Shown: positions 3,801-6,626 of the stretch, piece after piece
Layout: each line of letters begins with the position of its first letter
Position numbering within the stretch: position 1 is the first letter of the stretch
DNA from: Yuukianura sp. NJ FZ-2021
Lineage: Eukaryota
DNA: 64,000 nucleotides
Direction of reading: 5' to 3'
NCBI GenBank assembly: GCA_046563655.1
Contig: CM102286.1
Coordinates: forward strand, 14,322,001 to 14,386,000
The notes under the pieces: generated by a model
What the model saw: only the letters and a program-made list of their open reading frames with translations
Told to the model about the DNA's origin: nothing
Databases searched by the model: none
Translations under genes and position numbers: made by a program

Positions 3801-6626
3801 AGTTAGGCTAAACATCAGAATTCCAAAACTTTGAACTTTTAAGTTCAAATTACATGAGGCAGGCCTTAATTATGGATGGAACAGAAGGCTCTCGTCGGTT
3901 TTTTGACTCTTTCATTCCCTCTCTCTCCATTTGGAATTCAAATTTACGCGGGAACTTTGAATGTTTGAAGTTAACTTTAGTCTGGATTAGGTTAGTCTAA
4001 TGTTGAATACTTTATGGATTTTAGGTAATGCTGGCGGAGCGGAAAGGGACTGATGAGTTGTACGCCATTAAAATCCTGAAGAAAGATATCATCATCCAGG
4101 ACGACGATATAGAATGTACGATGATCGAAAAGAGAGTTCTCGCCCTAAGTTCAAAACCACCGTTTTTGGTCCAATTACATTCTTGCTTCCAGACTATGGT
4201 AACCAATACAGTCCAAATTTTCAAATTTCAGGTCAAAGTTTTAGCGATTCTAAATTGAAAATGTATGTTTGAAACTATGACATACGAAAAGTTTTGGTAA
4301 AACTAGAAAGTTGTAAGTAGAAAGTTTTATTTTTGGTGTAAATGTTGTAGGATCGCCTGTACTTTGTTATGGAGTACGTCAACGGAGGAGACTTGATGTA
4401 CCAGATTCAACAATTTGGAAAGTTCAAAGAACCCGTCGCAGCGTAAGTGAATTCAAAGAAAAAAAACACTAAAAGTTTTTGTTTTAGTGGAGTGAAAGAT
4501 GCCGAAATTTGATTGGAAGTTTGGAGTGATGGAAACAAGCCAATATTTGAGTAAACGTTGTCATGAAGTAGCGCAAGCTACTTTTTTGTATCCACTTTGT
4601 CTGTCTGTCCGGTCAGACGAGCAGCCCCTTAGACAGGCAGACAGGTACGTAGGTATGCAGGCAGACAGAGAGACAGACAGACAGACGGACAGACATGCAT
4701 ACAGACAGGCAGACAGACAATGCCGATGCAAAAAGTAGCTTTCGCTGCTTCATTACAACGTTTACAATGTCTGACCGGACAGACAGATTATATTGCTGTG
4801 TCTTTCGGTGACATCTTTCGCTACTTTCGTATGCCCGTTTTCAACTATTTTTTTTAATCTTGTGCGCATAGGTTCTACGCAGCTGAAATTGCCATAGGTT
4901 TATTTTTCCTGCATCGAAATGGGATCATCTACAGAGATTTGAAGTTGGATAATGTCATGTTGGACCAGGACGGCCACATTAAAATTGCAGACTTCGGCAT
5001 GTGTAAAGAGGGCATTTTGGATGGGAAATTCACCAAGACGTTTTGTGGAACGCCAGACTACATTGCCCCGGAAGTAAGTTTTCACTTTTCAAAAAATTAT
5101 TTTAACATATTTGGTGTGAATTATGAAAATTACAATGTGTTTTATCAGAAAACACGGTTTGTGTAAATCATGCTGAGGTTAGGTAACATAGTAGACGAAT
5201 TTGTAATACAAATTCTCATGAAAAGTTCTGAAGCCATAAATCAAAATTTGGCACGAAAAAGTTGTTGTGGAAAATATGATAAATCCTTGTTTTTCTTTTA
5301 CTCATTTGAAAAAAATTGTGATTCAATTTTTCTTGTTGACGTTCATAATTTTTGTGTTTGTTTTTGATCAGATTATTTTGTATCAACCTTATGGAAAATC
5401 AGTGGACTGGTGGGCTTATGGTGTGTTGCTCTACGAAATGCTTTGTGGTCAACCACCGTTTGAGGTAAACCCAAAATTTCGCAAAATCAAAACAAAAATG
5501 TAAAATTTCAGATTCTAGTTTAGTATAGTTTCCATTCCTATTTAAAATCGAGGTTTAACACAAGACTTTTGAGCCACAGTGTACAAATTGTGGTTTGTTT
5601 TAATTCTAGGGTGAGGACGAAGAAGAGTTGTTTGCTTCTATCACAGATCACGGTAATTTTGTTAATGAAAATTTCCTTTTCATGCTTCATGAAAAACCAA
5701 AAATTGAAATTTTGAAAAACTTTTTTTCTAACTTAGGTGTGGCCTACCCCAAGAACTTGTCAAAGGAAAGTAAAGAAATCATCAAAGGTTTTCTAATTAA
5801 AAATCCACTCAAGCGACTTGGCTGTTCTCCATGCGGAGAAGAAGAGATTCGAAGTCACACTTTTTTTAGAAGACTGGATTGGTACAAAATTGAATCCAGA
5901 GAAGTACAACCGCCATGGAAACCAAGAATTGTAAGAATTTCAAAAAAAAATCTTAAGATTTTCAAAAAATCGATAGATTTTCAAAGATTTGCTAGAGTTT
6001 CAAAGAAACTCTACTTTTTAGAACCGCTTTTCTTAAGTTTTTAGTAGATTTTTGGTTTGTTTTTATTTACTTTGGTTTTGTTTCCTTGTTGTGTAGAAAA
6101 ATCCTCGTTCAGTTGAAAATTTTGATCCGATTTTTACCAAAACCTCAACTGCCTTAACACCTCCTGATGCTAACGCCGATCTAATTTTGTCGAACATGAC
6201 GGGCGCGGAATTTAAATCCTTTAGTTACGCTAATCCCTTCTTTCAACGCTTTGGAGATGCAGAATCCCATGATCAGCATGGACCAGGTCAAGAAGACGAA
6301 ATTGAGCGAACAGCGTTGTGATCGGAACTTCTGATCACGGGACAGAGTTCTGATCATGTAGTTTTGTAGGTAGTTTGGATTTTGTTTTAAATTTTGTTGC
6401 TAATTTTGAATTTTTTTAATCTTTTCCCGCCATTTTTAGTTTTTTCTAAATTTTGTTGTTGTTTTGATTTCAGAAACACCGAAAAGATGTTAGCAACTTC
6501 GACAATCAGTTTACTTCGGAGAAAATTGATTTGACTCCAACGGATAAACTATTTTTGATGAACTTGAATCAAAATGAATTCTACGGCTTTAGTTACCTCA
6601 ATCCAGAGTTTATCCAGTACATCTAA
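838..6626 (+). CDS. Pkc53E: Conventional (Ca2+/DAG) protein kinase C, multi-exon, with two alternative last exons (6097-6321 and 6474-6626)
   Basis: Pseudosubstrate [11 protein letters not shown]1a [23 protein letters not shown]1b; C2 ([20 protein letters not shown]); kinase motifs [36 protein letters not shown]. Both last exons carry turn and hydrophobic motifs. The symbol is the closest recalled fly gene (PKC alpha/beta type). Confidence 0.95.
4549..4766. repeat. Foldback element (inverted arms of about 60 bp) enclosing a (GACA)n-like microsatellite, in a PKC intron
   Basis: gtaaacgttgtcatgaagtagcgcaagctactttttt... is mirrored by ...aaaaagtagctttcgctgcttcattacaacgtttac; the interior is cagacagacag repeats. 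Confidence 0.75.

Follow-up and report, generated by a model that had tools for sequence, protein, structure and literature searches.

A conventional PKC gene with two homologous V5 exons

The window analyzed here is the whole stretch of 64,000 nucleotides from Yuukianura sp. NJ FZ-2021 (GenBank assembly GCA_046563655.1, contig CM102286.1, positions 14,322,001 to 14,386,000 of the forward strand), and positions in it are counted from its first letter. At 838-6626 its forward strand carries a gene for protein kinase C (PKC), in which 15 shared exons are followed by two homologous exons for the C-terminal V5 tail, both behind one phase-0 donor (Table 1). From its sequence, the gene is identified as that of a conventional (Ca2+/diacylglycerol-dependent) PKC (cPKC) with two predicted alternative V5 exons, hereafter exon A (upstream) and exon B (terminal). 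The V5 tail governs priming, autoinhibition and localization of conventional PKC, and the mammalian choice between the beta-I and beta-II tails is hormonally regulated and functionally distinct in its outcome.

The 15-exon model of the shared part aligned best to a protein of the springtail Folsomia candida (P0166). AG and GT were found at all exon boundaries of the model, and no stop codon interrupts it. The shared exons encode 623 residues, and the isoforms ending in tails A and B would be 697 and 673 residues long, respectively. Identity of the shared part to the F. candida protein is 82% over 609 columns, and a tree of PKC bodies grouped the shared part with Folsomia and Orchesella. Two C1 regions, a C2 domain between C1 and the kinase, a Ser/Thr kinase and the C-terminal tail of AGC kinases, which together define a cPKC, were all found. 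The first Pfam C1_1 piece (925-1038) scored 26.4 bits against a cut-off of 26.5, as a half-domain cut by an intron, and the second (1696-1806) scored 39.1 bits; both C1 regions can be aligned to arthropod cPKCs. C2 was matched at 2990-3139 (59.8 bits) and 3210-3389 (29.6 bits; cut-off 22), and Pkinase was matched on two exons at 79.5 and 37.6 bits. A WDWD..NDF stretch is readable in the translated C2 region; this and a companion stretch of the region we take to be the Ca2+ ligands.

The sequence-only reading of this DNA had placed two complete exons with phase-0 acceptors after the donor at 5931, each with a turn-motif Thr and a hydrophobic-motif Ser of its own. Its coordinates proved correct to the base. 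The donor GTAAGA begins at 5931, directly 3' of exon 15, and the stop-to-stop open reading frames agree with the limits of both exons. Both tails exceeded the Pfam threshold for Pkinase_C (PF00433; cut-off 20.9), tail A with 37.5 bits (E 4e-9) and tail B with 54.3 bits (E 2.3e-14), and the exon pair is therefore more than chance. Three elements are needed by every AGC kinase tail, namely NFD, a Thr in the turn motif and a Ser in the hydrophobic motif. NFD, the Thr-Pro of the turn motif and the F-x-x-F-S-Y hydrophobic motif are kept in both tails, and the Thr and the Ser are readable in each. The tails are identical at 22 of 52 positions. They differ in the helix between the turn and hydrophobic motifs, which reads DLILSN in tail A and KLFLMN in tail B, and in the ends that follow the hydrophobic motif.

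Tail B is 80-86% identical to arthropod cPKC tails. Against longer proteins, 206 of its 210 candidates matched at E<=0.001, and the named rows among the 120 matches listed are arthropods at 74-86% identity, with the exception of one protein (P0001) filed under the plant Castilleja foliolosa. P0001 comes from a 32-kb contig of a plant assembly and resembles an arthropod cPKC; a piece of the B tail is repeated three times at its end. In appearance this is a contaminating contig that carries a tandem repeat or an assembly error. In comparisons with Protein Data Bank chains, tail B reached 66.2 bits with beta-I (8se2_A), as against 39.5 for alpha and 35.3 for beta-II; the corresponding scores of a profile of seven B tails were 88.9, 57.5 and 46.9 bits. 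In the alignment of tail B to beta-I, D.SNFD..FT can be read. The KLFLMN of tail B also resembles KLFIMN, which Table 8 of PMC10743673 gives as a V5 peptide of beta-I. By sequence, exon B is accordingly classed as orthologous to the beta-I exon of vertebrates. The claim of an invertebrate cPKC with two V5 exons in the vertebrate order is borne out here, tail B being far nearer to beta-I than to alpha or beta-II in both comparisons.

Tail A is 73% identical to an A tail of Orchesella cincta over 49 columns. As for exon B, a metagenome contig from a related species (L001, 14-177) matched the window at 6465-6626. The likeness is confined to the B exon, which is 98% identical in protein and 85% in DNA; exon B is thus under strong purifying selection.

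Table 1. Positions, in the window, of the exons of the cPKC gene and of the spacer between its two V5 exons.
Feature	Position	Strand	Remarks
Shared coding exons 1-5	838-1040, 1382-1413, 1540-1622, 1696-1807, 2752-2880	+	Exon model
Shared coding exons 6-10	2988-3141, 3209-3390, 3481-3530, 3611-3736, 4025-4198	+	Exon model
Shared coding exons 11-14	4351-4442, 4872-5073, 5372-5464, 5610-5652	+	Exon model
Exon 15, last shared	5737-5930	+	Ends ...CCAAGAATT, followed by gtaaga
V5 exon A, upstream, alpha/beta-II-like 'ENFD..LTPPD' type	6097-6321	+	74 residues and TGA (6319-6321)
Spacer from exon A stop to exon B acceptor	6322-6473	+	152 nucleotides, T-rich, ends tttcAG
V5 exon B, terminal, beta-I-like type	6474-6626	+	50 residues and TAA (6624-6626)

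Intron 11 (4443-4871) holds a (CAGA)n microsatellite of 15.5 copies at 4658-4719. The microsatellite sits within a longer CAGA/CAGG-rich stretch, where long open frames are found on both strands.

Distribution of A-type tails

When tail A was compared with 1.84 billion representatives, 37 matches of 53-188 residues were obtained at E<=0.001. Seventeen of them were aligned with tail A, and 13 of the 17 are exon-sized open reading frames in which the likeness begins precisely at residue 1 of the exon, with a Q directly before it. The Q therefore appears to be a CAG acceptor that was read through. In a word-indexed collection of longer proteins, tail A gave no match among 11 candidates, probably because the 95-residue representative of the Folsomia cluster lies outside the length range searched. 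With a profile of A tails, 8000 candidates were scored and 60 longer proteins were found to match.

Of 30 clusters looked up, five had members named by organism. Among springtails, Folsomia candida has A-type ends on its RefSeq isoforms X2 and X3 (P0167 and P0166), and Orchesella cincta and O. dallaii have them as well. Crustaceans with such ends are Daphnia magna, the ostracod Darwinula, and a cluster with transcriptome proteins of Neocalanus flemingeri. Among chelicerates they were found in spiders, mites (including Tetranychus urticae) and the horseshoe crab Tachypleus, and they also occur in Priapulus and the nematode Mesorhabditis belari. The alpha and gamma tails of vertebrates came lower down in the list obtained with the profile, and three novel-PKC-like tails came last.

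In water-flea-like A tails, Asp or Glu stands at the Ser position of the hydrophobic motif (F-A-E-F-D-W, F-A-D-F-D-Y, F-A-D-F-E-Y). These tails are L004 2385-2561, L009 1-171, P0125-P0128, P0130 (Daphnia magna KZS19784.1), P0136, P0138 and P0175. The acidic residue resembles the one that is fixed in atypical PKCs. In such animals, splicing would pick either a phosphorylatable B tail or a permanently acidic A tail. On the Daphnia-like genomic contig L004, ATTAAA and an A-rich run are found about 14 nucleotides past the stop of exon A (2561). Judging from these signals, exon A of this contig may end its transcript at a poly(A) site of its own, as a genuine alternative last exon does, and so differ from the cassette form of the copepod-like transcripts.

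Two protein models place both tails in one chain. The GenBank model OXA55857.1 of Folsomia (P0159, 898 residues) has the A exon and then the B exon, spliced in frame, with ..PVTPTPA joined to KHRKD..; its body is identical to that of isoform X3 at 713 of 714 positions, and one Folsomia gene therefore carries both exons. In a model of the nematode Mesorhabditis (P0195), an A exon is likewise present in part and runs in frame into a B exon. Taken at face value, the two models would mean that exon A is an in-frame internal exon and that both tails stand in tandem on one protein. We find this hardly credible. In Folsomia, RefSeq isoforms X2 and X3 come to an end with the A tail, and a stop codon lies between A and B in all seven transcript-like contigs described below. 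In the window, the frame is ended by the TGA at 6319-6321. Before it there are just two GT sites, with exon ends at 6314 and 6317; both are weak, that at 6317 scoring 3.2 bits, and neither is in phase with the acceptor (phase 0) at 6473. The stop and the lack of an in-frame donor exclude tandem translation of both tails from the window gene. The double tails of P0159 and P0195 are probably artefacts of gene prediction, by which the stop codon of exon A was avoided.

Exon order in metagenome loci

Metagenome contigs were scanned with the B profile, which gave 73 loci, and both tail profiles were then run over these loci, several of which are near-copies of one another. An A exon was found in 12 of the 73, and in all 12 it lies upstream of B on the same strand. 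Twenty genomic loci include the whole last intron; three of them have the A exon between the shared exon and B. Thirty-three loci are on contigs classed as lacking the shared exon, and A was found upstream of B in three of these and not seen in 30. The remaining loci are transcript-like: in six the shared exon is followed by A with its stop and then by B, and in 14 the shared exon is joined directly to B, with A absent. One contig classed as lacking the shared exon (L038) carries the end of that exon joined directly to A. With L038 included, there are seven transcript-like contigs in which the shared exon is joined to A and B begins 3-19 nucleotides past the A stop. In five genomic contigs, the gap from A to B is 630-1443 nucleotides. 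Across these different species, the pattern is that of a predicted cassette exon with its own stop. No pair of a B-only and an A+B transcript from the same gene was found among the metagenome contigs at a nucleotide identity of at least 88%.

The 17 genomic loci that lack the A exon (L011-L014, L016, L017, L022, L031, L033, L049, L050, L058 and L062-L066) have last introns of 74-2543 nucleotides. They comprise insect-like loci and a group with the B tail KSPRDVSNFD..EFVINV, the EFVINV end of which resembles vertebrate beta-I. The order of A before B was thus found in Folsomia, in the nematode model and in 12 of the 73 loci. From these counts, the A exon appears to be widespread, not universal.

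Age of the two tail types

A tree was built from 44 tails over 52 columns, with novel PKCs as the outgroup, and a second tree from 66 tails. In the first tree, tail A of the window was placed in the A clade with a support of 99/99* and tail B in the B clade with 93/79 (96/89* for the arthropods alone). The A tails were joined with the vertebrate alpha and gamma tails (99/96*), apart from the B tails and the novel-PKC outgroup. The same split, of A and vertebrate tails from B and outgroup tails, was found in the second tree (97/89). A recent, lineage-specific duplication, by which the sequence-only reading could have been overturned, was rejected: constraining the springtail A and B tails together costs 45.9 log-likelihood units, with p 0.00028 in the approximately unbiased (AU) test.

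Inspection by eye gave a similar picture. The A tails share [G/A]-E-NFD, the lack of a Glu after FT, and TPPD with the tails of alpha, gamma and beta-II. The B tails share KLF.MN with beta-I, and the Phe of this helix is replaced by Ile or Val in A, alpha, gamma, beta-II and the iota/epsilon outgroups. We regard it as probable, though short of assured, that one ancient duplication lies behind the A/alpha/beta-II/gamma tails and the B/beta-I tails, since fewer changes would be needed than with two duplications and two reversals. The A type is an exon of wide occurrence in ecdysozoans and most likely goes back to a common origin with the alpha, beta-II and gamma tails.

In spiders, mites, the horseshoe crab and the ostracod, the A and B tails are found on separate genes, the bodies of which are 67-80% identical (489/611 residues in Nephila pilipes, 445/640 in Halotydeus and 174/259 in Darwinula). 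In the body tree (33 rows, 617 columns, built by a quick method), A- and B-tailed genes of chelicerates fell in one chelicerate clade (99*), and those of copepods in one copepod clade (99*). Since A- and B-tailed bodies share one clade in each group, the tail types are older than the gene duplications in chelicerates and copepods. This would be the pattern expected if an ancestor with two exons was duplicated and each copy kept, or was annotated with, one tail. PRKCA and PRKCG of vertebrates would be a parallel case of such a partition.

Choice between the two exons

Four points are taken as established by the results above: how the gene is built, that it has two V5 exons, which family these belong to, and how old both types are. 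We consider it likely, with good confidence, that the window holds a cPKC gene in which the donor at 5931 can be paired with either of two acceptors and that the exon pair is an old one. The pairing of the donor with the strong distal acceptor at 6473 would give the 673-residue isoform with the beta-I-like tail B. Its pairing with the weaker proximal acceptor at 6096 would give the 697-residue isoform with tail A, and the stop codon of exon A would then put exon B in the 3' untranslated region. This would be the same logic as that of PKC beta-II versus beta-I in vertebrates. Because the acceptor of exon B is the stronger, B is likely the default and A the regulated choice. That both exons are used in Yuukianura, how the choice is made and how the enzymes differ, we infer from the arrangement of the gene and from its relatives.

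Several observations weigh against this reading. Splice sites were scored with a matrix built on the gene's own sites, and the acceptor of exon A (ttgtgtAG, with its TAG at 6094-6096) scored 8.7 bits, which is weaker than the 13.0 bits of the exon B acceptor (gatttcAG, ending at 6473). After the stop of exon A no convincing donor was found, the best GT scoring 2.0 bits against 6.1-11.8 bits for the gene's donors; exon A could be either a cassette exon or the start of one long terminal exon. The A exon is absent from 17 of the 20 genomic metagenome loci with a whole last intron, several of these loci being near-copies. The A profile gave near-equal scores for beta-II, beta-I and alpha (51.3, 48.8 and 48.3 bits). 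The tail alignment has 52 columns only and long branches, and the vertebrate tails in the trees are those of alpha and gamma, the relation of beta-I and beta-II to A and B being given by the Protein Data Bank scores. The AU test did not reject trees in which the invertebrate A and B tails were constrained together (p 0.262 with 44 tails and 0.223 with 66), nor one in which the B and vertebrate tails were (p 0.385). Finally, a functional difference between the isoforms would rest wholly on analogy.

Some of these observations would also be expected if exon A were a relic, conserved by recent descent and no longer spliced in, with the B isoform the only product. Besides its weaker acceptor and the lack of a good donor downstream, neither AATAAA nor ATTAAA occurs within 5931-7600; the end of tail A past the hydrophobic motif is unlike those of Folsomia and Orchesella; and the A exon was lost in many lineages, as in the 17 loci above. 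On the other hand, exon A is an open frame of 74 codons in DNA of about 35% G+C, and it keeps all the functional motifs, the Pfam match and the identity to the Orchesella tail described above. Its acceptor score also lies inside the range of the gene's other, constitutive acceptors (6.3-15.9 bits). A relic is, in our judgment, quite improbable.

A different history of the exon pair has more in its favor, while we still hold it to be unlikely. The ecdysozoan A exon and the vertebrate alpha/beta-II/gamma exon may be convergent, that is, products of separate tandem duplications of a beta-I-like last exon, with the shared [G/A]-E-NFD and TPPD being parallel changes or retained ancestral states. 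The failure of the AU test to reject invertebrate A and B tails as one group would agree with such a history, as would the near-equal scores that the A profile gives to beta-II, beta-I and alpha. Whenever a last exon is duplicated, the upstream copy comes with a stop of its own; the mRNA logic common to both groups is therefore not independent evidence. Moreover, such events are often convergent according to PMC9741552, in Table S5 of which fly Pkc53E is filed as 'different region, convergent'. Against convergence, the best trees join A with vertebrate alpha and gamma and not with B. The derived KLF.MN helix is common to B and beta-I, and A, alpha/gamma and outgroup tails have Ile or Val in it; a single B-like ancestor therefore needs two reversals in addition to two duplications. 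In addition, PMC8373072 describes equivalent exon pairs in invertebrates including the crown-of-thorns starfish.

The single ancient duplication remains the reading that we prefer. The claim that A groups with the alpha and beta-II tails is favored by the best trees, and it is not secured by the AU tests or by the near-equal scores of the A profile. The switch had also been suggested to date to the bilaterian ancestor; the pair is indeed old, a springtail duplication having been rejected, and its bilaterian age is already in print. In its fullest form, the scenario is that the cPKC of the bilaterian ancestor had both V5 exons, an alpha/beta-II/gamma-like one upstream and a beta-I-like one at the end. 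Springtails, water fleas, copepods, nematodes and vertebrate PRKCB would have kept the splice choice; after gene duplication, it would have been split among paralogues in chelicerates and in vertebrate PRKCA and PRKCG, and winged insects would have lost it. In water-flea-like animals, splicing would then pick either an enzyme that depends on phosphorylation or one that is permanently 'primed'. We regard this scenario in full as evenly poised between right and wrong.

Possible consequences for the enzyme

By analogy with the vertebrate isoforms, the choice of tail should alter the grip on C1b in the autoinhibited enzyme and the scaffolds that are bound. In alignments, the position of Phe648 of beta-I, which lies within KLFIMN, is Phe in tail B; in tail A it is Ile, where beta-II has Val. 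As described in parts of PMC13385876, helix alpha-B is displaced by Phe648 of beta-I and C1b is docked less tightly than in beta-II, and beta-I binds lipid more readily as a result. In Table 8 of PMC10743673, V5 peptides taken from this helix are given as inhibitors that act on RACK binding and translocation in an isoform-specific way.

The sequence-only reading had further suggested that the upstream isoform adds a PDZ ligand. A class I PDZ ligand is a C-terminal [S/T]-x-hydrophobic sequence, and tail A ends in ..EDEIERTAL, the T-A-L of which fits this pattern. The T-A-L end is kept in none of three springtail A tails, which end in ..PAVI (Folsomia), ..IPTT (Orchesella cincta) and ..IPTT (O. 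dallaii), and no common C-terminal end was seen among the other A tails. A conserved PDZ ligand is ruled out by these unlike ends. The three letters T-A-L may still be a real PDZ ligand in this species.

The window gene would give a second system for testing the roles of the two tails. With exons 152 nucleotides apart in a small-genome invertebrate, it would also be a handy minigene for studies of exon choice.

Comparison with known systems

Like vertebrate PRKCB, the window gene has two homologous V5 exons of about 50 residues after one donor, the upstream one with a stop. The legend of Fig. 2B of PMC3537621 states that the vertebrate beta-II exon carries a stop codon and that the last exon is then untranslated. 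Exon A of the window has ENFD and LTPPD in common with vertebrate beta-II and alpha. Unlike PRKCB, it has three residues inserted after TPPD and an acidic extension of 24 residues past the hydrophobic motif; also unlike PRKCB, exons A and B are just 152 nucleotides apart, with no clear donor past the A stop. The choice between beta-I and beta-II splicing in vertebrates is regulated by insulin and SRp40. We know of no counterpart of this regulation in the window gene.

The nearest named relative is the cPKC of Folsomia candida. It has the same order of A and then B and the same kind of junction, ..QPPFKPRI/KNPR.., whereas its A tail ends in ..PVTPTPAVI after a Pro/Ser-rich extension, unlike the ..EDEIERTAL of the window. 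The A-tailed isoforms of Folsomia are thus already annotated in RefSeq, X2 and X3 being computer-predicted models. We saw no experimental paper on these models.

In nematodes, the tails are more diverged (STENFD..LKLP..TPPD; DVSNFDPEFT..TPIDRLFLMNL). The PKC2 isoforms of C. elegans, reportedly described by Islas-Trejo et al. in 1997, are said to differ at both the N- and C-termini through alternative promoters and splicing. The passages considered of PMC11620748 and PMC5444632 make no mention of C-terminal isoforms of pkc-2, and those of PMC12608923 contain nothing on V5 splicing. Pkc53E of Drosophila belongs to the orthologous gene family and has a B-type tail, and records named 'protein C kinase 53E' are among the matches of exon B. 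According to passages of bioRxiv 10.1101/2021.09.29.462380, however, the alternative exons annotated for it are outside V5, in the N-terminal/C1 region, which agrees with the filing of Pkc53E as 'different region, convergent'. The insect-like metagenome loci, unlike the window gene, have no A exon in the last intron.

Section 17 of PMC9741552 lists PRKCB, Pkc53E and pkc-2 as all annotated with tandem-exon substitution events. The PRKCB event is one of two "conserved in Bilaterian clade" according to section 17 and the legend of Fig. 5B of PMC8373072 (Martinez-Gomez et al., NAR 2021), and its age is given as at least Bilateria in Table S2 of PMC9741552 (Martinez-Gomez et al., GBE 2022). No literature on the V5 pair in springtails or on its spread in ecdysozoans was found, and the supplementary figures of PMC8373072 may bear on this. 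That the pair predates the vertebrate-invertebrate divergence is thus already in print; the idea of a bilaterian age is sound, and the window gene is a further instance of it. What is added here is the spread of the exon pair within Ecdysozoa and its partition among paralogues.

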